A stretch of 64,000 bases of DNA from Amphiscolops sp. MND2022. Taxonomy: Eukaryota. The translations under genes and the position numbers were made by a program. The stretch spans positions 71,426,001 through 71,490,000 of the forward strand of contig OZ076409.1 of the NCBI GenBank assembly GCA_964187785.1. Reading direction: 5' to 3'. Positions 3,670 through 64,000 of the stretch are shown one piece after another. The notes under the pieces are model-generated. The model was not told the DNA's origin and searched no databases. It saw nothing but the letters and a program-made list of their open reading frames with translations. Numbering within the stretch: the stretch's first letter is position 1; every line of letters starts with the position of its first letter.

Positions 3670-5040
3670 AGCCAACTATTTTGACCAAAATCCTAAAAAT
3701 CATACCAATTCCTAAAAATTTTCAAATGCACCCCATTTGACGTATAAGATAAGCACAGAAAACTATCATATACCGATCAACTCTACTCCTATTGTAGATT
3801 ATTAGAATTTTGTTTAGAATGAATTTTGATGAATATTAAAAAAAATTTGAACCCTCCAAAAATGGGCCAAAATTACACGAAAAAATTGACCTTAAAATAC
3901 CAAATTGTCAAAAAATCATCAAAACCCAGGCTTCTTGGGGTTCTATCAACTCCGCGTGGTCAACAGAGTATGCTAAAACAGGTTTTACCCGTTTTTGAGC
4001 AATATGTGAAAAAACCGACATTTTTGGGAAAGAAAAACATACCATTTCCTAAAAAAATTCAAATGCACGTCATTTGCCGTATTAGAATAGCACAGAAAAC
4101 TATCACATACCAATCAACTCCACTTTCATTGCAGATGAACAGAATTTTGTTTAGAATAAATTTTACCGGATAATAAAAAAATTTGAATCCTTTAAAAATG
4201 GGCCAAAAATACACGAAAAAATGGACCTTAAAAATTTAAAATGTCAAAAAATCATCAAAACAACAGCTTCTTGGGGTTCTATCAACTCCACGAGGTCCAC
4301 AGAGTATGCTAAAACAGGTTTTACCCGTTTTTGAGCAATATGTGAAAAAACCGACATTTTTGGGAAAGAAAAACATACCATTTCCTAAAAAAATTCAAAT
4401 GCACGCCATTTGCCGTATGAAAATAGCACAGAAAACTATCACATACCAATCAACTCTACTTTCATTGCAGATGAACAGAATTTTGTTTAGAATGAACTTT
4501 ACCGGATAATAAAAAAATTTGATTCCTTCTAAAATGGGCCAAAATTACACGAAAAAATGGACCTTAAAATTTTAAAATGTCAAAAAATCATCAAAACTAC
4601 GGCTTCTTGGGGTTCTATCAACTCCACGTGGTCCACAGAGTATGCTTAACCCGGTTTTACCCATCTTTGAGCAAAATGTGAAAATACCGACATTTTTGGA
4701 AAAGAAAAACATGCCATTTTCTAATAAATTTCAAATGCACGCCATTTGCTGTATGAGAATAACACAGAAAGCTGTCACATACCGATCAACTCTACTTCCA
4801 TTGTAGATTATCAGAAGTTTGTTTAGAATAAATTTTGAAGGATAATAAAAAAATTTGAATCCATCAAAAATGGGCCAAAATTACACAAAAAAATTGACCT
4901 TAAAATATCAAAATGTCAAAAAATCATCAAAACCACAATTTCTTGGCGTTCTATCAACTCCATATGATACCAAACCAGGTACTGCCAATCGTTTGAGTTA
5001 TAATAAAAAAACATCTTTTTTGGCAAGAATTCCATACCAT
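3670..5040 (+). repeat. ~336-bp tandem repeat, about 4 copies, inside U1
   Basis: Anchor (A/G)CCA(T/A)TT..TAA..AA.TT.CAAATGCAC at 3704, 4041, 4377 and 4713. Confidence 0.85.
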
Positions 5041-5251
5041 AAATAATAATCATGTTCCATATAAGAAGCGAATCATTTCAGATATATACCCTGTTCATTT
5101 TTTAAATATTACCGGTTATTAATTTAATAGATGTTTTGAATGTGAGCTTCCTAAAAGGTTCAGGTGTGATGATACGTAAATCGAACCTTAGTTTCATCGA
5201 AATCTCAATTGAATATGTCCAATCTTAACCATCAGATAACAAGAAACACTT

Positions 5252-5294
5252 AAGTACATTCCATCTCCCCATCGGGGGAGATGAGAATGTACTT
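5252..5294 (+). other. Type B internal hairpin (representative)
   Basis: AAGTACATTC-CATCTCCCC-atcg-GGGGAGATG-a-GAATGTACTT imperfect inverted repeat; one copy in every 1.27-, 2.19-, 2.37- and 4.76-kb cassette. Confidence 0.85.
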
Positions 5295-6222
5295 TCGAGA
5301 AGCCAAATACGTCCAACATTCAAACTTTTGTAACTTTGTATGTAACTCCTGAAACGAAGAAGGAATAAAATTGTTTCTGGTACATCGATGAGTCTTTACT
5401 TCAGCTTCTATTTCTGCTGAACAAAACCATTCGACTCTTTTGCCGGAGTTAAGATCGATTGTATTACCCAGTGAACAAAGGCATGACTGAAAACGTTTAC
5501 TACTTTGTTCATAATTTTCCGGCCTTCCGAAATGATGAAACGTCCACATAACTAAGATAGCAAGTGAATGACTGCGAAATGCACCTTATTAGATGAGGTA
5601 AATAACGTGTAAAACTCTCCTTTATCCTAACATGAGGTTGAGTAATGATCATTTGAGAATAGTTTGATATGTGAATACAATAGTATAAAACAAGTACATT
5701 TTATATGAATAACGCCGTGGAAAGCGTTCAGAAAGGACAGTAGGCTTGTTTGGAACATGTATGTGTGGTGTCCCTTGGTGGCGTTCGCTTAGTGTATATG
5801 TCGAGGGGTATTCGAGTTGTTATGAGAGAATTTACACACAAGTCTTTTGTTTTTTGGTTTTTTTAAAAAGTCGTTAAGTACCTGCATTCTATCCCCTTCT
5901 CAGAGATGACGTGAAGTTACGTTTGCTAAATAAATGTCATCTGAAGATCACACTCCCGACGAAATTAACTATCTTAACACGTGTTTAGAATTTTAAATAA
6001 ACAACCGTATAAGATTTTTATATTTCATTGAGTTTGATGAAGTCTTTTGTTCTTCTCACTACTATTTCAACCAATACACATATCCGTTACCATATCACAT
6101 GTCTCCATTAGTACAACGCCACATAGCGTTCCGACGCCCACAGTCTGTGGGCATGCCGAGGCATGCCCTTCGACGACGTATGGCAAATGGAGCCATGCCC
6201 GCCGTCTTTACGGCGGTAGCGG

Positions 6223-9013
6223 CTAGGTGGCGGGGGGCTGTCCCCAATAGAATATAGTGAGGTAGGGTAGGGTTCCCTACCGAACATTCAGTACTGAAAG
6301 ACTCTTGTAGTATGAAAATTTTTCGATGTTTTGAGACCGATTTCGGATTCCACCCGTCAGAAGTTTATGATTTTTTGGCCCCCACCCAGATTTTGGGCAC
6401 TGATCGCCCCCCACCAGGTTCCATACCCGTGGTTTCGTTGTGACGGGTACACGAGCGACCGTTAGGGGTCAATCAGGGGGTAAAATTTATAAAAGTGTGA
6501 ATAACTTTTCCCCCCGTCGTTTTAGCAGGTCCGGTCACTAGTAAAGGTTTGTTGGGCATCATGCAGTGGGTACGGGGGGCCAAACAAAAATTTTCTATCT
6601 TGCACCGTTACGGACTTGGCCCCCCGCCCAAACCGCTATTTTACCGGAAATTGCACTTTTTGACCGGGAAGGAGTCGTCTGAGCGCGGAGTCATTTGGTA
6701 ATGTTTTGTAGAGCATCTGGAGACGTGGTGGGGGACATGTAGTTTGCCGACCCCAGTTTACCCCTCGGACGGGAAATGACCGTTATGTGAGTTTCAAAAA
6801 TGCCCCCCTCCAATTTTCCCCGCAATTTCCGGTGTGAAGGAGTCGGAATAGCGTGTCGAGTGCTATATATCAAAAGTAGCTTTAAACAAGGACCTATCAG
6901 AAACATGTGGTTTGGGACCCTTTGAACGGACCCGTTAGCCGGAAATAGGGTGACCGCCTCCTTTTTTTGGTGGTAAAACCGTAAAACGGGCATTAAAGTG
7001 TAATTATCTCGTGAACGCGTGGAGCAATCGTGTCCATCACTCCTACAAGGTTTCATACCCATGACATGGTGCCTTCAGGGGGGCAAACAGATCAGCGCTA
7101 TCTATCACCGTTACGGACTTTGCCCCCCAGCCTAACCGCTATATTACCGGAAATTGCCCTTTTTGACCGGGAAGGAGTCGTCTGAGAGTGGAGTCGTTAA
7201 GTAATGTTTTGTAGAGCATCTAGAGACGTGTTGGGGGACATGTAGTTTGCCGACCCCGGTTTACCCCTCGGACGGGAAATTACCGTTATGTGAGTTTTAA
7301 AATTGACCCCCTTCAACTTTCCCCGTTATTTCCGATGTGAAGGAGTGAGGGTAGCGCGTCGGGTGTCATATATCAAAAGTAGGTTAAGACAAGGACCAAC
7401 CGGGAACATGTTGTTTGGGACCCTCTGGCCCAACCCGTTAGCCGTTATAAGGGTGATCGCCTCCTTTTTTTACTGCTAAAACCGGAAAACGGGCATTGAG
7501 GGGTAAATATCTCGTGAACGCGTGGAGCAATCGTGTCCATCACTACTACAAGGTTTCATACCCATGATACGGTGCCTTCAGGGGGGAAAACAGATTACCG
7601 CTATATATCACCGTTACGGACTTGGCCCCCCAGCCTAACCGCTATGTGACCGGAAATGTCATTTTTTGAGCCAAAAGGGTTGGTCCCAGCGTGGGAACGT
7701 CAGGTAACTTTATGTAGAACTCAATGAGACGAGTTGGGGGATATAGTTTTAGTCACCCCCCGTTGACCCGTTGGACCGGAAACGAACGTTATGTAGTGAA
7801 AAATGTTATTTTTATACTTTTTGAAGGCCATTTAGGGCAGGAAGTATCGGTAATATGTCTTTGGACAGTATACAATGAAAGTTTTGGTGTGAAACGAGCA
7901 ATCTGAAATAACCGTTATTATGATTCGGAAGTCACACTAACAGCGAAAATGACCGTTATGTAGTGAAAATTTTTTTCACAATTTTTTTTATTTTCGATAG
8001 GTCCTTCAAGCCAGGAAGTAGCTGTATTAGGTCTTTGGTCACTTTATGATGATTGTGGTGTTGTGAGATGACCGTACGAACTTGACCGTTATAATGCCCC
8101 TGAAGTTGCGGCGGCACGAGAAATTTCAGAAAGTTTGTCTTTTCTGTGTTTTGTTGGAATAAACATGTAATTTCATCAAACCAAAGTGCATTCAGGGTGT
8201 CAGAAAGCTTCAAGAAAAGAATTTGACAGGAAACATGAGGTGAGAAATAGGAAAATGCCACGGAAATCCAACCCGTTGGGAAGTAAAGATAATAAATTGG
8301 TTTGGAAGTGCCAATCGACGTGTAATTGCGGATCATAGCTACGATATTGTCTCTTTTGTTTCTTTTTGAAGACTTTGAACATTTTCACTTTATCAGCTTG
8401 AAGTTTCGACTCCATTAACTCAATAACCGTTACAATATGATAGCCCTCAAGTTGACCTTGTGTCAACTTGAAAGGGCTATCCTTTCACAACTGCGCAGCG
8501 ACAGTGTGATTGAGTGTTTTTGTTATTATCCATAGCCAATTTGAACTTCAACAAAAGTTTAACCATAGTTAAAAAATTTCATATGATTCTTTTAAAAGGA
8601 TAAGTAAGAAACAAATGTTTGACAAAAAACTTTCAACCTTTAATTTGTGGACTGAATATCAGGAAAACCATGTCTCCTAACGTTGTTGGATGAAATTCAA
8701 CATGATTCTTTTAATAGGATAACAAAGTTTGACAACATATTTTTTTATATTCTTTCGTTGGTGCTCTACATTTTAGGAAAACGAATTTTCCAACAAATAT
8801 TGTTGGCTGATGCCTGTTCATAGTGGCTTGAAAATTTCACCAACTGTAATGCTTTTTATCAAAGGTGAAACCGCTCCTTACCGTCGCATAATGTAATTCA
8901 AGCCGACGCCCACATGCCAACATCAACGCCCACCGTCCGTAGGCATGCCGAGGCATGCCTTTCGACGACGTATGCCAAATCACGCCCCTGCGAGGTCACT
9001 AAAGCGGTAGCGG
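6223..9013 (+). mobile_element. Cassette U2 (2791 bp, 2.79-kb class)
   Basis: Near-identical to U18 but with different neighbours on both sides; type A hairpin 8439-8481; core hairpin at 8941. Confidence 0.65.
6600..7660 (+). repeat. ~503-bp tandem duplication (2 copies plus start of a third) inside U2
   Basis: CACCGTTACGGACTT at 6603, 7106 and 7609. Confidence 0.85.
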
Positions 9014-9021
9014 CTAGGTGG
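8904..9021 (+). other. Terminal core, A-T compensatory variant
   Basis: AGGCATGC-CGAG-GCATGCCT: the outer G-C pair is replaced by A-T. The same variant occurs at 19671, 48566 and 56895. Confidence 0.9.
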
Positions 9022-44461: not shown

Positions 44462-45848
44462 CTAGGTGGTCGGGGCGGTCCCCAGAACGCACATGGAGGC
44501 GCGGGGAGGGTCCTGCGCCGACGTAGAATAATTTCATAAAATACTATTATCCTACATGGGTGTTTTGGAAGCGATTTTGGAACCTACCCGTCAGATTTGG
44601 ATAATTTTTTGCATGCGGCCATAACTCGAAATTCTAAGAACTTTTTCCCTCTGTCATTTCCCCCGCAAATTGTTTTTTGTTGACTTATGGCCGAAAAACC
44701 GGAAATAACGTCCTTTTTAGACGTTATATCCGAAGTGTCGTCATAACTTTTTTCCAGGGCATGCTAGCGTTCTCGTTCACTTTTACACTTAGTTGCAGCA
44801 TCTCAAAATACAACTGGTGGAAAATTTTGGTTGCATTCGGATCACCCCCCACCAAGATATAAGGGTTCCCCCCTCCAGTTTTACCCCCCAAATTTGCAAA
44901 AAAGCCAATTTTGAGCCTGAAGCCGAGGATTTAGCGTACCCGCACCCTCCTGATGTTTTGTTGTACGTATTGGGATCAATCTGACGACATGTGTGGTTTC
45001 CACCCCCAACCCCCCCTGGGACCGGAAATGACACTTTTTTGTGTTTTTTGGCAGAATTTAGCCTTTTTCATTATTAGGCAGTCGTTTTAGGGACTTCTTG
45101 CAGGATATCGAAATTGAAATACAACCTGATCACAACCCAGTGACAACATGTTGGCGTTTGGAGAGATCATCATGACCGGAAGTGGGGTCAACCCCCCTTT
45201 TTGTGACCGCTTTTTGACCTTGTGCACCAAAATGCCAACAACTTGAGGCCTAATGAGGCATTCAAATCTGTACAAAGATAAAATGTTAGACAACCGAAGT
45301 CCCGGAAGATCTTTAGCATATACCGGAAGTTACCCCCCATGACCGGAAGTTACCCAATGTGACCGGAAATGGTCCAAAAATTAATGTAAAGTTGAATTTT
45401 TCTCTATTTCAAGACCACTTCATAGAACATTTTCATTCTAAAAACTAGCGTACGGGCTTGTTTTGCTGAATTTGTGGAAATTGATGAGCTCTCTCACCCC
45501 CGATAGCCTTCGAAGTTGACCTTGCGTCAACTTTGGAGGCTATCGATACTGAAAATGAACAACAAAGTACATTGTTGCTTTCGGTTTTTTCCCGTTGTTT
45601 TTCCTCAAACATTCTTGAGACATATACATGGCTGTTAGTTGAAATCAATATTTAGCCCATGTTATAGCTGGAGCAGCGAAGCGTTACACAGAGTAGTGTG
45701 GTTTTGAAATTACATTATTTAAATTAACAGTTGACCGTCTTAGTCAACTCCACACTTTCATACCAACGCCCACCGTCTGTGGGCATGCCGAGGCATGCCC
45801 TTCGACGACGTATGACGAATCCACTCCAACGACGCCCGCAGTCCTCAG
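44462..45848 (+). mobile_element. Cassette U17 (1387 bp, 1.39-kb class)
   Basis: Near-identical to U20 with different neighbours; type A hairpin 45501-45545; core hairpin at 45781. Confidence 0.65.
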
Positions 45849-48638
45849 CTAGGTGGCGGGGGGCTGTCCCCAATAGAATATAGTGAGGTAGGGTAGGGTT
45901 CCCTACCGAACATTCAGTACTGAAAGACTCTTGTAGTATGAAAATTTTTCGATGTTTTGAGACCGATTTCGGATTCCACCCGTCAGAAGTTTATGATTTT
46001 TTGGCCCCCACCCAGATTTTGGGCACTGATCGCCCCCCACCAGGTTCCATACCCGTGGTTTCGTTGTGACGGGTACACGAGCGACCGTTAGGGGTCAATC
46101 AGGGGGTAAAATTTATAAAAGTGTGAATAACTTTTCCCCCCGTCGTTTTAGCAGGTCCGGTCACTAGTAAAGGTTTGTTGGGCATCATGCAGTGGGTACG
46201 GGGGGCCAAACAAAAATTTTCTATCTTGCACCGTTACGGACTTGGCCCCCGCCCAAACCGCTATTTTACCGGAAATTGCACTTTTTGACCGGGAAGGAGT
46301 CGTCTGAGCGCGGAGTCATTTGGTAATGTTTTGTAGAGCATCTGGAGACGTGGTGGGGGACATGTAGTTTGCCGACCCCAGTTTACCCCTCGGACGGGAA
46401 ATGACCGTTATGTGAGTTTCAAAAATGCCCCCCTCCAATTTTCCCCGCAATTTCCGGTGTGAAGGAGTCGGAATAGCGTGTCGAGTGCTATACATCAAAA
46501 GTAGCTTTAAACAAGGACCTATCAGAAACATGTGGTTTGGGACCCTTTGAACGGACCCGTTAGCCGGAAATAGGGTGACCGCCTCCTTTTTTTGGTGGTA
46601 AAACCGTAAAACGGGCATTAAAGTGTAATTATCTCGTGAACGCGTGGAGCAATCGTGTCCATCACTCCTACAAGGTTTCATACCCATGACATGGTGCCTT
46701 CAGGGGGGCAAACAGATCAGCGCTATCTATCACCGTTACGGACTTTGCCCCCCAGCCTAACCGCTATATTACCGGAAATTGCCCTTTTTGACCGGGAAGG
46801 AGTCGTCTGAGAGTGGAGTCGTTAAGTAATGTTTTGTAGAGCATCTAGAGACGTGTTGGGGGACATGTAGTTTGCCGACCCCGGTTTACCCCTCGGACGG
46901 GAAATTACCGTTATGTGAGTTTTAAAATTGACCCCCTTCAACTTTCCCCGTTATTTCCGATGTGAAGGAGTGAGGGTAGCGCGTCGGGTGTCATATATCA
47001 AAAGTAGGTTAAGACAAGGACCAACCGGGAACATGTTGTTTGGGACCCTCTGGCCCAACCCGTTAGTCGTTATAAGGGTGATCGCCTCCTTTTTTTACTG
47101 CTAAAACCGGAAAACGGGCATTGAGGGGTAAATATCTCGTGAACGCGTGGAGCAATCGTGTCCATCACTACTACAAGGTTTCATACCCATGATACGGTGC
47201 CTTCAGGGGGGAAAACAGATTACCGCTATATATCACCGTTACGGACTTGGCCCCCCAGCCTAACCGCTATGTGACCGGAAATGTCATTTTTTGAGCCAAA
47301 AGGGTTGGTCCCAGCGTGGGAACGTCAGGTAACTTTATGTAGAACTCAATGAGACGAGTTGGGGGATATAGTTTTAGTCACCCCCCGTTGACCCGTTGGA
47401 CCGGAAACGACCGTTATGTAGTGAAAAATGTTATTTTTATACTTTTTGAAGGCCATTTAGGGCAGGAAGTATCGGTAATATGTCTTTGGACAGTATACAA
47501 TGAAAGTTTTGGTGTGAAACGAGCAATCTGAAATAACCGTTATTATGATTCGGAAGTCACACTAACAGCGAAAATGACCGTTATGTAGTGAAAATTTTTT
47601 TCACAATTTTTTTTATTTTCGATAGGTCCTTCAAGCCAGGAAGTAGCTGTATTAGGTCTTTGGTCACTTTATGATGATTGTGGTGTTGTGAGATGACCGT
47701 ACGAACTTGACCGTTATAATGCCCCTGAAGTTGCGGCGGCACGAGAAATTTCAGAAAGTTTGTCTTTTCTGTGTTTTGTTGGAATAAACATGTAATTTCA
47801 TCAAACCAAAGTGCATTCAGGGTGTCAGAAAGCTTCAAGAAAAGAATTTGACAGGAAACATGAGGTGAGAAATAGGAAAATGCCACGGAAATCCAACCCG
47901 TTGGGAAGTAAAGATAATAAATTGGTTTGGAAGTGCCAATCGACGTGTAATTGCGGATCATAGCTACGATATTGTCTCTTTTGTTTCTTTTTGAAGACTT
48001 TGAACATTTTCACTTTATCAGCTTGAAGTTTCGACTCCATTAACTCAATAACCGTTACAATATGATAGCCCTCAAGTTGACCTTGTGTCAACTTGAAAGG
48101 GCTATCCTTTCACAACTGCGCAGCGACAGTGTGATTGAGTGTTTTTGTTATTATCCATAGCCAATTTGAACTTCAACAAAAGTTTAACCATAGTTAAAAA
48201 ATTTCATATGATTCTTTTAAAAGGATAAGTAAGAAACAAATGTTTGACAAAAAACTTTCAACCTTTAATTTGTGGACTGAATATCAGGAAAACCATGTCT
48301 CCTAACGTTGTTGGATGAAATTCAACATGATTCTTTTAATAGGATAACAAAGTTTGACAACATATTTTTTTATATTCTTTCGTTGGTGCTCTACATTTTA
48401 GGAAAACGAATTTTCCAACAAATATTGTTGGCTGATGCCTGTTCATAGTGGCTTGAAAATTTCACCAATTGTAATGCTTTTTATCAAAGGTGAAACCGCT
48501 CCTTACCGTCGCATAATGTAATTCAAGCCGACGCCCACATGCCAACATCAACGCCCACCGTCCGTAGGCATGCCGAGGCATGCCTTTCGACGACGTATGC
48601 CAAATCACGCCCCTGCGAGGTCACTAAAGCGGTAGCGG
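45849..48638 (+). mobile_element. Cassette U18 (2790 bp, 2.79-kb class)
   Basis: Copy of U2; type A hairpin 48064-48106; core hairpin at 48566. Confidence 0.65.
46226..47285 (+). repeat. ~503-bp tandem duplication inside U18
   Basis: CACCGTTACGGACTT at 46229, 46731 and 47234. Confidence 0.85.
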
Positions 48639-50825
48639 CTAGGTGGAGGTTATTTTATAATAATTAAAGTGTTTTTTTCCGGAGTTTGTGGCTTTGGAAA
48701 AAACAAAAGGCGAGAAATTGGGCACTCCGGGCTGAACCGTATACACTCAAAATTCGCCCAATATTTATACGATCTCGAAACCCAGCCGTACGATTTGGCT
48801 GAAAATTTGCATGCGGCTAAAAAATCAGATTCTAAGAACTATTTCCTGCTGACATTTTTTTGAAATTTTTGTGTACGTTTCCCCCCCGCCCCCTAAAGGG
48901 GTCAATTTTCCCCAATTTTGCACTTTTTAGTCAAATTCTCAGAACTGGTGGATCTGAGCTTTTTCCCGATGGGGACAACTTTTAACAAGCGCTGTTCAGT
49001 AGACCTTTTTGACTTTTTACTTTGGTGGTACGTTCACCCCCCAAGGAGGAAATGGCGTTTTTGTGACTTCCGGTCGAGACTTTTTTCACCCAAAAAATAG
49101 AAATAAGCCAGTTTTGAGCAGGAAGGAGTGGATATAAAGTGTCTGTACCCTGCTAAAAATTTGTGGGGCGTGTAGCGATATATCTCATACCAAGTCTGGT
49201 TTTCACCCCCGAACCCCCCTCGAGACCAAAATTCACCCAAACGTTTTACCTCTATTTGTGGTTTTTTCACAAAATGTCGTCATTTCCATCGGCAAAGATT
49301 TGAATTAGGGGCTCCTAATAGGGTACCAAAGTTCAAGTACACTTGGAGTGCAACTGAGTGACCCTTTTTGGGCCTCTCGTGTGTTCGGCAATAACCGGAA
49401 GTTGTATAAACCCCCCTTTTTTGACGTTTGTTGACCTTGAGACTCGCTCTTAGATGACGTTTATGTCTCGCAAATCCTACAAACCAGTATTAGAATGACA
49501 TGCTAGCCAACTAGAGAGCAATAAGGGAAACTATACTATACCGGAAGTAACCCCCTCTTGACCGGAAGTTGTCATTTTTGACCGGAAATGGTCCAAAACC
49601 TAGCGTGAAAGCTGTTTTTCATTGCTTTTAAAGTCAACTTATTACTTTTTTCACTCTGCGCGAGCTTGCCTTCAGGTTCGTTAGTGTTGCCCGTACACAC
49701 TGCAACAAATATACATCTGTAAAATTTTCGCTATAATATCGTCGGAGAGAGAAATAACGGGTTTTAGGGATTTTTTTTTTCAAAAATATTAGTGTTTATC
49801 TGTCATTTTTACCCAACGTTATTGAACAGTAGAACCATAGGGGTTAGTCTTCGCCCAAATATATGCCTAACAAAAGCACTTGTCCCATTGGTTGCAGTTT
49901 GGGCGTTTTAGCTTTGCCTGGTCACAAGTTAGGGGACTTGAAAAACTTTCAAAATCATTTCCGAATTTTTTTTCTAAACGTCACGTCTCCCAAAGTTAAG
50001 AAACTTCCTCACAACTAGGACCGCAAGTGAATGCATGTGGTTAGACCTATAAATGGAGAGAAAAACTCCGTTTAGAACATCTCTTTATCGTAACGTGACG
50101 TTAAGAGATGTTGCTTTGAATGTGAATTTGATAATGCGTCGAGAAGTAAAAGTGTGTAAATGGAACCTTTGTCTCGATAAATACTCCTCGCAATACATGC
50201 GATGAACCCCAATTACCCTCAGTTTCAGTTGCTTAGTACATCAACGTCTTCCAAGGACCTTTTATCTATTTTGAAAATGTCGAAATCATTATTAATATCA
50301 GTTATCAAGAAACACATGAGCACATTCTCATCTCTCCCCATCGGGTGAGGTGAGAATGTTCTTGCTGAAAGCCAGGTACTACGGCCCCCTTTTGTTTTAA
50401 TACGATGCATTCTCTGCTTTAGCTCATAGATATTTTTTTTCGCCTGATTGTTTGTATACTCTCTGACTTCTTGTTATAAATCTCTCGTCATTACTTTACA
50501 TAAATATACAACCAAAAATCATTATCGTCAACGCCACATACATTTAGACGCCCACCATTCCGTAGGTATGTCGAGGCATACCTTTCGATTACGTATGTCA
50601 AAACGCAAACGTGATAAAAAGTGCTGGAAGTCTCAAACAGTGACAAACAAATTTGACTACTTGAAATATGGGAGGTTTTTATATGGAACTTACACATAGC
50701 TGACATTTCACAACTTTGCAGCTGACGCCCACATGCCAACATCAACGCCCACCGTCCGTGGGCATGCCGAGGCATGCCCTTCGACGACGTATAGCAAATC
50801 CCTTTCACCGACGCGCACTCTCCCG
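48639..50825 (+). mobile_element. Cassette U19 (2187 bp, 2.19-kb class)
   Basis: Body closely similar to U26; type B hairpin 50318-50363; core hairpin at 50760. Confidence 0.6.
50529..50600 (+). other. Degenerate second copy of the core, 196 bp upstream of the true core
   Basis: CAACGCCACA...GACGCCCACC-attccgt-AGGTATGT-CGAG-GCATACCT-TTCGATTACGTATG, with no CTAGGTGG after it. Equivalents near 54320, 56690, 58860 and 63710. Confidence 0.8.
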
Positions 50826-52215
50826 CTAGGTGGTTGGGGCGGTCCCCAGAACGCACAAGGAGGCGCGGGGAGGGTCCTGCGCCGACGTAGAATAATTTCA
50901 TATAATACTAGTATCCTACATGGGTGTTTTAGAGGCGATTTTGGAATCTAACCGTAGGATTTGGATAATTTTTTGCATGCGGCCATAACTCGAAATTCTA
51001 AGAACTTTTTCCTACTGTCATTTTTCCCGCAAATTGTTTTTTGTTGACTTATGGCCGAAAAACCGGAAATAACGTCCTTTTTAGACGTTATATCCGAAGT
51101 GTCGTCATAACTTTTTTCCAGGGCATGCTAGCGTTCTCGTTCACTTTTACACTTAGTTGCAGCATCTCAAAATACAACTGGTGGAAAATTTTGGTTGCAT
51201 TCGGATCACCCCCCACCGACATAGAAGGGTTCCCCCCTCCAGTTTTACCCCCCAAATTTGCAAAATAGCCAATTTTGAGCATGAAGCCGAGGATTTAGCG
51301 TACCCGCACCCTCCTGATGTTTTGTTGTACGTATTAGGGTCAATCTGACGACATGTGTGGTTTTCACCCCCAACCCCCCCTTGGACCGGAAATGACACTT
51401 TTTTGTGTTTTTTGGCAGAATTTAGCCTTTTTCATTATTAGGCAGTCGTTTTAGGGACTCCTAGCAGGATATCGAAATTGAAATACAACCTGATCACAAC
51501 CCAGTGACAACATGTTGGCCACTTGGAGGTATCATCATGACCGGAAGTGGGGTCAACCCCCCTTTTTGTGACCGCTTTTTGACCTTGTGCACCAAAAATG
51601 CCAACATCTTGAGGCCTAATGAGGCATTCAAATCTGTACAAAGATAAAATGTTAGACAACCGAAGTCCCGGAAGATCTTTAGCATATACCGGAAGTTACC
51701 CCACATGACCGGAAGTTACCCAATGTGACCGGAAATGGTCCAAAAATTAATGTAAAGTTGAATTTTTCACTATTTCAAGACCACTTAATTGAAACTTTTC
51801 AATCTCAAAACTAGCGTACTGGCTTGTTTTGCTGAATTTATGGAAATTGATGAGCTCTATCGCCCCCGATAGCCTTCGAAGTTGACCTTGCGTCAACTTT
51901 GGAGGCTATCGATAAAGAAAAATGAACAACAAAGTACATTGTTGCTCTCGTTTTTTTCCCGTTGTTTTTCCTCAAACATTCTTGAGACATATACATGGCC
52001 GTTAGTTGAAATCAATATTTAGCCCATGTTATAGCTGGAGCAGCGAAGCGTTACACAGACTAGTGTGGTTTTGAAATCACACTATTTAAATTAACAACTG
52101 ACCGTCTTAGTCAACTCCACACATTCATACCAACGCCCACCGTCTGTGGGCATGCCGAGGCATGCCCTTCGACGACGTATGACGAATCCACTCCAACGAC
52201 GCCCGCAGTCCTCAG
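50826..52215 (+). mobile_element. Cassette U20 (1390 bp, 1.39-kb class)
   Basis: Copy of U17; type A hairpin 51867-51911; core hairpin at 52148. Confidence 0.65.
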
Positions 52216-54590
52216 CTAGGTGGTCGGGGTGTTTCCCAGCCGTTTTGGCCGCGCGGGGAGGGACCCGTTCAGCGGCCCAGGTAATTAAGATTTTGTCATT
52301 CAAAAAATGACCCATCCGGAAAGCGATTTCGAAACCCACCCGTAGGATCCCTCTGAATTTTTGCATGCACCTCCGTATAACAGATGTAAGTTAAAGTCAG
52401 CAAGAGCGTTTTCAGTTCTAAACGGGGAATGTTGACCAAAAAGCGCAATTTATGTCCAAAAAAATGCAATTTTTCGACTTTTTTATTTTTGACGGCCAAC
52501 AGCTCTTTTCCAGATGCCCGCCCAAGTCATAAATCGGAGTAAGCTTTTGTTGGGCACTTCGTGAAGAATCTTTAGGGTGATTTTCGTTTCATTCCTATTT
52601 CCTGACGTTGACTTATGGTTGGGTGAAAAAACGCAACATTTGTTACAAAAAGTGCTTTTGGTACTCAAGGGCCCATAACTCGTGACATAATCAATTGAGC
52701 AAGTTCGTGTATACTTACGATTTTGTTGCCTATCTATAGGAGAACAAACAAGCAGTGACAAAACTTTCTGTGGGAAGACGTCAAAAAAAGATATCACAGG
52801 TTTTATAATCAATAAAACAGTGTTTTTCGGTTGTCGTGGAAAAAATGTAAAAGGGTGGCATTTTTCGGCTGTTTAAGGTAGCGGGTATTTTATTGCTGTT
52901 ATTAACTCACCTCTAGTATTCATTTACTTGGATGATTTTCAATTTTGATAAATTACATGATAAACTTCATTTTTTGCGTCACCAATATTGACACCCACGA
53001 TTACAGTCATTTTTTTCGCGTTCACGTTTTTGAGTGGATATAACTTTTTTCCAGTGCGTTTTACGGTCATCATCCAGGAGCACAAAATTGTTGGCCGGCT
53101 TAAGCAGAAAATATATGGTAAGTTTAGAGTCATTTGAAACGTTTTTGAAATGTCCAGAGATGCACAAATTTACAGTTTTTTTGCCCACAAAACACTATTT
53201 TACGAAACCCAAAACTTTTTGCCAAAAAAGTCAAACTTTGTCCACACAACTTAGATTGCAAGTGAATGCATGCGGAGAGTACTTGAAATGGTGGGAAAAA
53301 TGAGCTATAGAACGCTCATTTACGACAACGTGACGTGGACTTAGGACATTTTGAAAAAGTACGAAAAAAAAGAACAACGGTTCCAAAACAATCAGTTTGT
53401 AGTAAATGGCCAATAACTCCATACACAACCTTCCGCGCAAGCTAGTGTCCAAGTACGTTTTTGTTACCCGTGAACAGCGCAACAAATAAGTAAAAGTAAA
53501 ACTTTATGTAGAGAATCGTCGGAGAAAGAAATAACGGGATTTTTTGTCACATTTAAGAGACAAAATTGAAAAATTAGTCTATTCCTGGCATTTTACCTAA
53601 ACTTTTTCGACAGTACACATACAGGAGGTAAAATTCGCCCAATACCATGCCTAACAAAACTATTTGATCCATTGGCCGCAATTTGAGCGTTCCACCTTTC
53701 CCCAGTCATAAATTATGGGACTTCGAAATTTTTCAAAATTTCCATTTTTCAACAAAATTTCAAATTCAGGCCTCCCAAAGGTAAGAAAGTTCCACACAAC
53801 TAGGATTGCAAGTGGTTGCATGTGGAAAGTGCTCGAACCGACGAGAAAAATGGGCTTTAGAACGTCTCTCTATCGTAACCTGACGTTGACTTATGATGTT
53901 TTGAATGTGAGACTGCTACGTGCTCGAGAAGTGTAAGTGGAACATATGTCTCGTTGAAAACTCATCGGAATACATTCAATGAACCCAATCACCCTAAATT
54001 GCAGTTTCCTAGTGCAACAACGTCTGTCAAGGACCTTTTTTGATAAGAGTCGAAATTATTATTAAATTCAGTTAGCAAGAAACACTTGAGTACATTCTCA
54101 TCTCTCCCCATCGGGGGAGATGAGAATGTACTTGCTAAAACGGCTTCTTTGTTTTCATGCGATGGATTCTGTGCCTTGCCACACATATAACTTTGTTTTG
54201 TGTGACCTTGCATTTATACTTTGACTTGTCATGATAAATTTCTTCTCGTAAATTTACGTAAATCAACAATGCATCTACAATGCATCTTCAACGTCAAAGC
54301 CAAATAAAAATAGCTGGCCACCGTCCGTAGGCAGAGCAAGGCATGCTTTTTGATGACGTATGCCGAAACACAAACGCGAACAAAACTGCTGAAAATCAGA
54401 AACAGTGACCAACAATTTTGACTGTTTGACATATGGTAGGTTTTTATATGGAACTTACACATCACTTATATTTCACAACATTTCAGCTGACGCCCACCTA
54501 CCACTATCAACGCGCACCGTCAGTGGGCATGCCGAGGCATGCCCTTCGACGACGTATGGCTAATACTTTCAGCGACGCCCCCGCCTACCC
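52216..54590 (+). mobile_element. Cassette U21 (2375 bp, 2.37-kb class)
   Basis: Similar to adjacent U22; type B hairpin 54088-54133; core hairpin at 54525. Confidence 0.6.
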
Positions 54591-61800: not shown

Positions 61801-63989
61801 CTAGGTGGAGGTTATTTTATAATAATTAAAGTGTTTTTTTCCGGAGTTTGTGGCTTTGGAAAAAACAAAAGGCGAGAAATTGGGCACTCCGGGCTGAACC
61901 GTATACACTCAAAATTCGCCCAATATTTATACGATCTCGAAACCCAGCCGTACGATTTGGCTGAAAATTTGCATGCGGCTAAAAAATCAGATTCTAAGAA
62001 CTATTTCCTGCTGACATTTTTTTGAAATTTTTGTGTACGTTTCCCCCCCGCCCCCTAAAGGGGTCAATTTTCCCCAATTTTGCACTTATGAGTCAATTTC
62101 TCAAAACTGGTGTATCTGAGCGTCTTCCCGGCGGGGACAACTTTTAACAAGCGCTCTTCAGTAGACCTTTTGGACTTTTTACTTTGGTAGTACGTTCACC
62201 CCCCAAGGAGGAAATGGCGTTTTTGTGACTTCCGGTGGAGACTTTTTTCACCCAAAAAATAGAAATAAGCCAGTTTTGAGCAGGAAGGAGTGGATTTAAA
62301 GTGTCTGTACCCTGCTAAAAATTTGTTGGGCTTGTAGCGATATATCTCATACCAAGTCTGGTTTTCACCCCCAAACCCCCCTTGAGACCAAAATTCACCC
62401 AAATTGTTTTACCTCTGTTTGTAGTTTTTTTGCAAAATGTCGTCATTTCCATGGGTAAGGCGTTGAATTAGGGACTCCTAATAGGGTACCAATGTTCAAG
62501 TACACTTGCAGTGCAACTGAGTGACCCTTTTGGGGCCTCTCCTGTGTTCGGCAAGGACCGGAAGTGGTGTAAACCCCCCTTTTTTGACGTTTGTTGATCT
62601 TGAGACTCGCGCTTAGATGACGTTTATGTCGCGCAAATCCTACAAACCAGTATTAGGATGACATGCTAGCCAACTAGAGAGCACTAAGGGAAACTATACT
62701 ATACCGGAAGTAACCCCCCGTGACCGGAAGTTGTCATTTTTGACCGGAAATGGTCCAAAACATAGCGTAAAAGCAGTTTTTCATTGCTTTTAAAGTCAAC
62801 TTATTACTTTTTTCACTCTGCGCGAGCGTGCCTTCAGGTTCGTTAGTGTTGCCCGTGCACACTGCAACAAATGTACATCTGTAAAATTTTCGCTATAATA
62901 TCGTCGGAGAGAGAAATAACGGGTTTTTGGGATTTTTTTCAAAAATATTAGTCTTTATCTGTCATTTTTACCCAACGTTATTGAACAGTAGAACCACAGG
63001 GGTTAGTCTCTGCCCGATTATATGCCTAACAAAAGCATTTGTCCCATTGGTTGCAGTTTGAGCGTTCTAGCTTTGCCTGGTCACAAGTTAGGAGACTTGA
63101 AAAACTTTCAAAAACATTTCCGAAATTTTTTTCTAAACGTCACGTCTCCCAAAGTTAAGAAACTTCCTCACAACTAGGACTGCAAGTGAATGCATGTGGT
63201 AAGGCCTATAAATGGAAAGAAAAACTCCGTTTAGATTGTCTCTTTATCGTAACGTGACGTTAAGAGATGTTACTTTGAATGTGAGTTTGATAATGCGTCG
63301 AGAAGTAAAAGTGTGTAAATGGAACCTTTGTCTCGATAAATACCCATCGCAATACATGCGATGAACCCCAATTACCCTCAGTTTCAGTTGCTTAGTACAT
63401 CAACGTCTTCCAAGGACCTTTTATCTACTTTGAAAAGTGTCGAAATCATTATTAATATCAGTTATCAAGAAACACTTGAGTACATTCTCATCTCTCCCCA
63501 TCGGGTGAGATGAGAATGTTTTTGCTAAAAGTCAGGTACTACGGCCCCCTTTTGTTTTAATACGATGCATTCTCTGCTTTAGCACACAAATATTTTATTT
63601 CGCCTGATTGTGTGTATACTCTCTGACTTGTTGTTATAAATCTCCCGTCATTACTTTACATAAATATACACAAAAAATCATTATTGTCAACGCCACATAC
63701 ATTTAGACGCCCACCATTCCGTAGGTATGTCGAGGCATACCTTTCGATTACGTATGTCAAAACGCAAACGAGATAAAACCTGCTGAAAGTCTGAAACAGT
63801 GACAAACAATTTTGACTATTTGACATATGGTAGGTTTTAATATGGGAGTTACACATCACTGGCATTTCCCATCATTCCAGCTGACGTCCACATACCAACA
63901 TCAACGCCCACCGTCCGTGGGCATGCCGAGGCATGCCTTTCGACGACGTATGCCAACTTCTGTATATCTACACTCAATTGCGGTAGCGG
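61801..63989 (+). mobile_element. Cassette U26 (2189 bp, 2.19-kb class)
   Basis: Body closely similar to U19 but with a different tail; type B hairpin ~63478-63523; core hairpin at 63919. Confidence 0.6.
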
Positions 63990-64000
63990 CTAGGTGGTCG

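Follow-up and report, generated by a model that had tools for sequence, protein, structure and literature searches.

The window analysed here, a stretch of 64,000 nucleotides at positions 71,426,001-71,490,000 of contig OZ076409.1 (C1 below) in a 1.07-Gb eukaryotic assembly, is filled by an array of short units, numbered with the prefix U, among which two nearly identical copies of a 2.79-kb unit, U2 and U18, are the subject of this report. The original prediction held that one cassette sits at two sites with only a few bases of difference, among different neighbours and with identity ending at the junction, and this is borne out. With the limits first given (6223-9013 and 45849-48638) the copies show 5 differences in 2,791 nt, four substitutions and one indel (99.82% identity), and in ungapped comparison 40 of 40 nucleotides agree immediately inside both the left and the right end, against 8 of 40 upstream of the left junction and 13 of 40 beyond the right-hand CTAGGTGG. 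The exact boundary is CTAG|GTG, so that the unit runs from 6227 to 9017. The further pairs named in the prediction behave alike: U17 and U20 agree at 38/40 and 40/40 positions inside their ends and at 10/40 and 13/40 outside, though overall they are just 96% identical, while the 3′ ends of U1 and U12 match at 40/40 positions inside the junction and 20/40 after it, and the 5′ ends of U19 and U26 at 40/40 inside and 11/40 upstream.

A motif of about 50 nt, common to all units, lies about 45 nt upstream of every junction, and owing to it the BLAST match between U2 and U18 runs some 115 nt leftward past the junction. The breakpoint is still placed at CTAG, because the 30-45-nt tails leading from this motif to CTAG are unlike in the two upstream neighbours. 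The heptamer CTAGGTG occurs 27 times on the plus strand of the window, one per unit, and its recurrence at the unit joints is not chance; the octamer of the original prediction consists of the 3′ CTAG of one rolling-circle transposon and the 5′ GTG(G/C) of the next. Genome-wide, the best eight matches to U2 are 99.86-100% identical, lie on chromosome-scale contigs C1-C4 and have other members of the unit system on both sides, with different neighbours each time, and copies of the family carry private differences (2-10 nt) in a star-like pattern. Misassembly is unlikely because at least eight near-identical copies on four contigs have distinct neighbours and private differences. The read material, a single low-depth contig run (share 0.16) with 11 of 30 bins covered at a depth of about 2-3, is uninformative; that the assembly collapsed or shuffled repeats is scarcely credible in view of the star-like private substitutions, of array edges with clean host flanks that match empty sites, and of a unit pattern that recurs on at least six chromosome-scale contigs.

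The units are bounded by structured ends (Table 1). At the 5′ side, the second hairpin of the left terminal sequence (LTS) has a family-wide GG(G/T)(A/T/C)GGG..CC core with stems that vary in sequence while continuing to pair; of 329 heads found independently of the core 317 possess it, whereas among 1,835 background windows 11 do, and folding at z < -1 is seen for 43 of the 49 head types, whose median z is -2.1. At the 3′ side, the hairpin in the RTS, the right terminal sequence, lies 29-45 nt before the unit end, with an outer G-C pair in 294 units and A-T in 40. The terminus reads CTAG in 360 of 368 parsed units and CTGG in 8, in a procedure of unit calling that favoured CTAG ends, and 25 units carry other, recurrent 3′ sequences that are still CTAG-terminated. 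HLE2 elements, discussed below, have asymmetric terminal inverted repeats of 8-15 bp; in some of the present families a 5′ GTGGGCG has its complement, CGCCCAC, some 85 nt before the 3′ terminus, a short match with no visible covariation. The search for open reading frames (ORFs) found none above 126 residues in U2 and no long one in the window, and an Rfam scan of the window gave 0 matches. Several single units merit description in their own right. U19 and U26 (48643-50829 and 61805-63993 of the window) have bodies 94.5% identical and unrelated 3′ tails, a tail exchange at the RTS motif. The 4.76-kb families contain an internal 336-nt tandem repeat in 3.8 copies (3696-4962 of the window, with matching parts of U5, U12 and U14), and internal tandem repeats are likewise frequent in non-autonomous Helentrons. 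Just right of the window, at C1:71,491,394-71,491,542, lies a unit of 148 nt in which a head is followed by an RTS with little besides, which hints at how short a mobile sequence can be.

Table 1. Features of the window, in window positions.
Feature	Position	Strand	Remarks
Array	1-64000	+	Whole window; 26 complete units, 1.27-4.77 kb, all on the plus strand
CTAG 3′ end of upstream neighbour	6223-6226	+	Target tetranucleotide; inferred nick site CTAG|GT
Non-autonomous Helitron-like element (U2)	6227-9017	+	2,791 nt, 5′-GTGG...CTAG-3′; boundary shifted 4 nt from the original prediction
Left terminal sequence (LTS)	6234-6281	+	Small hairpin 6234-6245, second hairpin 6261-6281
Internal direct repeat of about 503 nt	6595-7794	+	84% identical; inside U2
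Right terminal sequence (RTS)	8941-8970	+	8-bp hairpin (A/G)GGCATGC-CGAG-GCATGCC(T/C) and conserved TTCGACGACG
3′ terminal CTAG of U2	9014-9017	+	
1.39-kb family unit (U17)	44466-45852	+	
Second family copy (U18)	45853-48642	+	5 differences from U2
U20, relative of U17	50830-52219		96% identical to U17, other neighbours

The window is a small part of a much larger structure. Its array extends at least 80 kb to the left and at least 100 kb to the right, and plus-strand units were met in 19 of 20 ten-kilobase samples across C1:70.54-76.51 Mb. The zone that holds it spans roughly C1:70.45-76.2 Mb, with its left edge at 70,454,838. It is not perfectly continuous: near 71.33 Mb there is DNA that belongs to no unit, at 76.005 Mb a right edge was found, and at 76.04-76.09 Mb two heads lie on the minus strand; further arrays of 16 kb to more than 100 kb were mapped on C1, C2, C5 and C7. 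An exact 29-nt motif near the unit 3′ ends is found 4,068 times genome-wide (its reversed control, 0), and since 275 of 368 sampled units possess it, some 5,400 units are expected in the genome; a second estimate gave about 4,900. The 368 parsed units fall into 67 head types, mostly of 1.1-4.8 kb. Elsewhere, zones rich in the Rep-helicase (RepHel) genes described below lie near contig ends and switch strand midway (C2:102.05-103.9 Mb, C3:2.4-3.9 Mb), and at C1:23.97 Mb two arrays meet in opposite orientation.

Ends of the commonest tail type, GCGGTAGCNG-CTAG, are followed by GTG(G/C) in 1,998 of 2,086 cases. In the U2 family a unit tail with CTAG stands before every one of the 78 heads listed, by a pattern that misses any copy, U18 among them, in which position -14 is C. 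Candidate targets in host DNA are plentiful: CTAGDT occurs at 565 sites in 600 kb of flanking DNA, or an estimated 1.0 million sites genome-wide, against about 5,000-5,400 units, and the position of heads at joints therefore implies a per-site preference for joints of some thousands. Within the arrays, 360 units contain CTAGDT internally 332 times, and no insertion was seen at any of these sites. They lie on the unit strand in 37 cases and on the other in 295; in 11 non-autonomous family representatives 1 site lies on the transposed strand and 9 on the other (host control, 173 and 175). Pairs of units at least 99% identical share their downstream neighbour in 1 of 79 cases and their upstream neighbour in 1 of 82, are adjacent in 3 of 89, and have the same tail in 92 of 93. 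Neither crossover at the RTS, which would swap the tail, nor a concatemer, which would give identical neighbours, explains such pairs. The claim of a site-specific event, as opposed to ordinary homologous recombination, is thus upheld inasmuch as single units move with nucleotide-precise ends. On this evidence, drawn from sequence comparison, we put at roughly 0.8 the probability that insertion of single copies at the CTAG|GTG joint of resident copies has been the main route by which the arrays were built.

Several observations weigh against joint insertion as the main route. The strand bias becomes weak once families are collapsed and is mixed in autonomous units, and the 2.79-kb family has only the RTS motif and the LTS core in common with the autonomous units described below. 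Solo insertions exist (88 of the 2,086 tails lack a following GTG(G/C)), including one solo copy of the U2 family, 95.5% identical. Young copies tend to lie together: of 42 units that have a partner at least 99.5% identical, 24 have one in the same array, and 32 of the 78 listed U2-family heads lie within C2:102.36-102.67 Mb, so that local spread evidently contributes. Helraiser shows no local hopping (PMC4778049; this and the other sources cited here are drawn on in part). Three tandem copies differ by 3-6 nt, as dispersed copies do, which fits a concatemer and separate insertions alike. Among pairs with 98-99% body identity 13 of 262 have unlike tails, as do 109 of 437 at 95-98%, so recombination also reshapes units; this second, slower process swaps 3′ tails at the common RTS motif or close to it. 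Tests of growth polarity on youth-weighted triplets were null, except that the fourth base matched the downstream neighbour 6:0 in the youngest class.

Much of this would be expected if the elements had merely a short target preference, CTNG|DT, and the arrays arose from concatemers, local re-insertion and loss elsewhere, with later crossover or gene conversion at the RTS motif of about 50 nt. The clustering of young copies by array, the existence of tandem runs of one family, the excess of like head types among neighbours (58, against 30±4 in within-array shuffles) and the tails swapped among older relatives all speak for this account, and tandem plant Helitron arrays have reportedly been ascribed to rolling-circle amplification (work by Xiong from 2016, known through citing papers). 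Against it, adjacent units are seldom alike (1 of 198 at 99% identity or more, 19 of 198 at 90% or more), internal CTAGDT sites within the arrays stay unused, and units with unrelated RTSs and with RepHels only 31% identical share the same joints. Above all, pairs at 99% or more keep their own tail while both neighbours change, and both breakpoints are therefore at CTAG, outside the shared motif. Taken as a whole, concatemers and local events are an unlikely main source of the arrays.

The edges of arrays and the copies that stand alone in host DNA show what the elements insert into. At right edges host sequence begins after CTAG, and its position +2 is T in 28 of 30 loci, under a search pattern that excluded G at +1 and may have admitted a few chance matches; at left edges CTGG and CTTG are found besides CTAG. 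One family was considered as a right-edge marker, a use weakened by those of its copies that have host-like left flanks and a downstream partner. Forty right-edge loci extended upstream comprised 13 single units with a recognisable head, two multi-unit arrays and 25 without a head. Directly before GTG, the 13 solo heads have the tetranucleotides CTTG (four), CTAG (three), ACAA (two), CTCG, GTCC and TTCA, with one uncertain; CTNG precedes 8 of the 13. Empty sites were recovered in paralogues: for a solo copy with a GTCC target, GTCC|TTCAAG in five of seven fetched (the other two lacked the anchor), and for an 8-unit array of 15,933 nt standing at one point, CT(A/G)G|TT in seven of seven. These empty sites define the element as 5′-GTG(G/C)...CTAG-3′, inserted with no target duplication. 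In a typical host target the insertion point is preceded by CT(A/T/C)G and followed by (A/T)T. One further solo copy, on the minus strand at C2 about 16,308,011-16,310,000, lies in a tRNA-like sequence with CTAGCTAG before GTG and possibly one extra CTAG; ARAGORN found no tRNA gene at this sequence.

The autonomous members of the arrays are 13-25 kb long and have the same ends as the short units. Seven of eight units above 12 kb contain intact ORFs of 2,367-2,853 residues, all on the unit strand; in the nearest such unit (C1:71,348,206-71,369,474, 21.3 kb) the first 977 nt are 96% identical to a 1.27-kb family and the end is the common RTS. An intact RepHel ORF lies at C1:71,357,707-71,364,808. 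The proteins have Rep motif I, an HUH motif (EFQxxxGNLPHxH), a YxxKY motif with two catalytic tyrosines and a Pif1/SF1B helicase. In the intact array protein P0001 the Helitron_like_N domain scores 27.5 bits (cut-off 28.9), in other copies it is above the cut-off, and PIF1 is above its own; the Rep model (pLDDT 57) has Helraiser 7lcc as its best Foldseek match (E 1.5e-4), the sole match below E 0.001. A search with the Rep region gave 108 matches in the genome, 31-100% identical, most in open frames above 1,800 residues and concentrated in array zones. The units are almost certainly Helitron-like elements, and the short cassettes appear from their sequence to be non-autonomous members of a divergent HUH rolling-circle lineage of this kind. 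Other ORFs accompany the RepHel. Behind it, a 411-residue ORF (C1:71,341,315-71,342,548) gives OB-fold look-alikes that bind single-stranded DNA (POT1/CTC1/MEIOB), as a lead only, and ORFs of 300-390 residues are similarly placed in other autonomous units; a 190-residue ORF upstream of a frameshifted RepHel (C1:71,332,329-71,332,899) weakly resembles GDSL lipases, in a match of E 4e-4 that falls short of the cut-off, and is perhaps a captured SGNH domain.

These findings bear on the original prediction, which is supported only in part: the octamer is not a recombinase core common to both partners. An integron-like scheme, in which a tyrosine or serine recombinase would cut units out as circles and put them back at a core of 7-8 nt, CTAGGTG(G), with the RepHel units as passengers, accords with the precise 7-nt repeat at all internal junctions, the uniform orientation and the shuffling of single units; the core length also suits tyrosine recombinases, whose overlaps measure 6-8 bp. 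The core is dispensable, however, as host targets read GTCC|TT, CTTG|AT and CTCG|AT, which largely refutes the scheme; it also lacks flanking inverted binding arms, and the CTRG ends with a subterminal hairpin are Helitron-like. The ORFs of at least 250 residues within units are RepHel and accessory ORFs, no tyrosine recombinase was found inside array members, and PF00589 has just four weak matches genome-wide, none in a sampled array. We regard the integron-like scheme as very improbable. Replitron, Crypton and integron readings were all dropped once the RepHel units and the non-CTAG targets had been found. About 0.3 Mb from an array zone on C3, one 1,055-residue frame (C3:2,083,091-2,085,292) has three weak tyrosine-recombinase matches 993 nt apart.

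A different division of labour would leave only strand transfer to the HUH domain and assign targeting to a C-terminal GIY-YIG nuclease or an accessory protein through a homing-like cut at the joint. GIY-YIG nucleases are often site-specific, and the domain is fused to many members: Pfam detects it in one nearby copy and in 13 of 18 relatives scanned. By the same test the intact P0001 lacks it, with a C-terminus that looks degenerate, yet units of the P0001 type lie at exact joints, and the insertions show neither the target duplication nor the deletion that a double-strand cut might leave. Nuclease-directed targeting is accordingly rated as improbable.

Within the Helitrons the array proteins form a group of their own. 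A profile search with the RepHel collected 222 clusters at 50% identity (E <= 1e-30), one named relative being from hagfish, and some relatives have an OTU domain. DUF6570 and AP endonuclease were found in none of 18 relatives and neither of two own proteins scanned; DUF6570 is present in this genome's other Helitrons. The motif-II pattern, recognised in 119 of 186 related proteins, has a Q-to-P spacing of 6 (84 proteins), 8 (34) or 9 (1) residues, against 4 in the genome's other Helitrons. In quick, unrooted trees, for which this genome's own Helitrons served as references, the Rep domain sets the array group apart from the HLE1-like (EWQKRG-type) and DUF6570-bearing Helitrons (SH-aLRT 82; 97 for the branch that excludes all but one long-branch outgroup row). 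The N-terminal half of the helicase does so with SH-aLRT 100, in a tree that left out eight near-duplicate outgroup names and any row in which no Walker A was detected. Related Reps were also met at seven metagenome loci, which were either too short or devoid of recognisable ends; one of the seven matched over 28 residues only. On two metagenome contigs the same stretch of about 7 kb, which has inverted-repeat-like ends and is perhaps a different transposon, adjoins or lies within the gene of a related RepHel.

By analogy with Helraiser and IS91, a RepHel would nick the top strand at CTAG|GT and peel off one strand up to the next RTS hairpin and CTAG, giving a circle whose joint again reads CTAG|GTG; the circle would then integrate after a tetranucleotide that resembles the element's own 3′ end. 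Helraiser nicks its LTS, terminates at an RTS hairpin with CTAG, and forms circles with precise RTS-LTS joints that are themselves cleaved (PMC4778049, PMC5876387), and IS91-family elements insert beside CTTG, GTTC, GTCC or CTCG, sequences that resemble their own terminus (terIS), without target-site duplication (PMC13181058). The elements described here may thus combine Helraiser-type joints with IS91-type targeting. The cut sites at the start, the end and the target would all read CTNG|DT, and since the element's own end recreates the nick site, every insertion would leave a perfect CTAG|GTG. An end-to-start joint in the chromosome would mimic the circle joint, complete with LTS hairpins, and could on that account outcompete bare host CTAG-D-T sites by thousands per site. 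The resident feature that is recognised may, going by weak hints and at little better than even odds, be the LTS of the downstream copy: the LTS core is common to sub-lineages with differing RTSs, which slightly favours it.

On balance we lean to the broader view that these elements represent a distinct, widespread and apparently undescribed RepHel-GIY-YIG lineage of Helitrons (the 222 clusters, hagfish included) in which the transposase acts as a site-specific integrase for its own origin, building megabase arrays and largely sparing host genes. Helitrons are known to target loosely, at A|T or T|T, and where they form tandem arrays these have been put down to concatemers of a single element made by rolling-circle replication. 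The present arrays hold thousands of copies from dozens of families, intact autonomous ones among them, which appear to have been added singly at a precise, self-made site. If this is correct, each insertion makes the next landing site and a community of families builds cassette-like megabase arrays, a eukaryotic counterpart of IS91 target logic turned on itself. Transposons would thereby have a direct way of becoming satellite-like domains of megabase size that needs no unequal crossover, and a DNA transposon would show a form of harm avoidance like that of retrotransposons targeting telomeres or ribosomal DNA. The choice of target by Helitrons would become testable with defined substrates, and the enzyme would be a candidate landing-pad integrase for large cargo (up to about 25 kb), scar-free and repeatable. 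With a young family whose copies are 99.9% identical and more than 100 RepHel copies, many with full ORFs, the genome may offer a natural active Helitron that could be studied without reconstruction. Because GTG...CTAG termini do not fit the 5′-TC or T|T rules of structure-based annotation tools, the lineage may have been overlooked elsewhere.

Comparison with known systems places the array elements, as judged from their enzyme and the absence of target-site duplication, in the Helitron superfamily; in 5′ end, target and clade they fit neither HLE1 nor HLE2. In the literature covered, largely outside subscription journals, Repbase and bioRxiv supplements, we found neither a report of a RepHel clade with GIY-YIG nor one of Helitron arrays that are mixed and targeted to junctions. 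With HLE1, including Helraiser, they have in common a Y2 HUH Rep fused to a Pif1 helicase, copy-and-paste movement, non-autonomous derivatives (PMC4778049, PMC5876387), a 3′ CTRR end after a hairpin (here CTAG or CTGG) without target duplication and, as a lead only in the present case, a downstream OB-fold (RPA-like) ORF. HLE1 differs in its 5′ TC and A|T target, against GTG(G/C) and CTNG|DT here, and in a motif-II spacing of 4, against 6 or 8; hairpins at the 5′ end, a conserved hairpin 30-45 nt from the 3′ end, the C-terminal GIY-YIG, the separate branch and the fact that about 96% of copies abut another copy all set the present elements apart. HLE2 elements (Helitron2 and Helentrons) resemble them in hairpins at both ends, a large RepHel, the OTU domain of some relatives and tandem repeats in non-autonomous copies (PMC3627910, PMC5148889, PMC11417382); the array elements are without DUF6570, AP endonuclease, T|T target or 5′ T, and branch separately. 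The same group of sources includes one moss HLE2 family with a captured GIY-YIG, from HELIANO, and Fusarium elements for which self-insertion was proposed, nested and not in end-to-end arrays.

Other Helitron-related repeats are unlike these arrays, namely the satellite-like derivatives of Hydractinia (PMC11934779), the elements between centromeric repeats of Meloidogyne (PMC13404089) and the randomly oriented fragments at Drosophila biarmipes telomeres (PMC6581046). Head-to-tail arrays do arise from repeated insertion at a preserved target in the tandems made by double insertion of transposable elements (10.1101/158386) and in the telomeric retrotransposons HeT-A, TART and TAHRE, the latter with mixed families in one orientation (PMC6581046). 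The former have a target-site duplication between copies and then grow by unequal exchange of one family, and the latter involve retrotransposition at chromosome ends, whereas the present arrays have no duplication, dozens of families, insertions at internal joints and interstitial loci. Replitrons, too, are HUH transposons of eukaryotes whose ends appear to bear short direct repeats, but they use a Y1 Rep without helicase (PMC10288648), in contrast to the YxxKY and Pif1 domains found here and an apparent CTAG repeat made up of target and element end. Cryptons and integron cassettes depend on an encoded tyrosine recombinase and an obligatory shared core, whereas no such recombinase was found in the array members and the core is dispensable. 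The IS91 family consists of Y2 HUH rolling-circle elements; IS91 leaves no target duplication and has, next to its origin end, a tetranucleotide target resembling its terminus cleavage site, and its targets CTTG, GTTC, GTCC and CTCG may be set beside the solo targets CTAG, CTTG, CTCG and GTCC found here; it is bacterial, has no fused helicase, and long self-built arrays are not described in the parts of the source used (PMC13181058). The nearest conceptual precedent, judged by analogy, would be the third clade of Helitrons in Paramecium, which lies outside HLE1 and HLE2, keeps a strict orientation with many non-autonomous copies in one compartment, and has a 3′ CCAA end that resembles its target, the C4A2 telomeric repeats (PMC13085455). 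It is compared here by description alone, its text and text supplements, as far as they were covered, make no mention of GIY-YIG, and its target is a host telomeric repeat that remains between copies, whereas in the arrays described here the joint between two copies would itself be the target.

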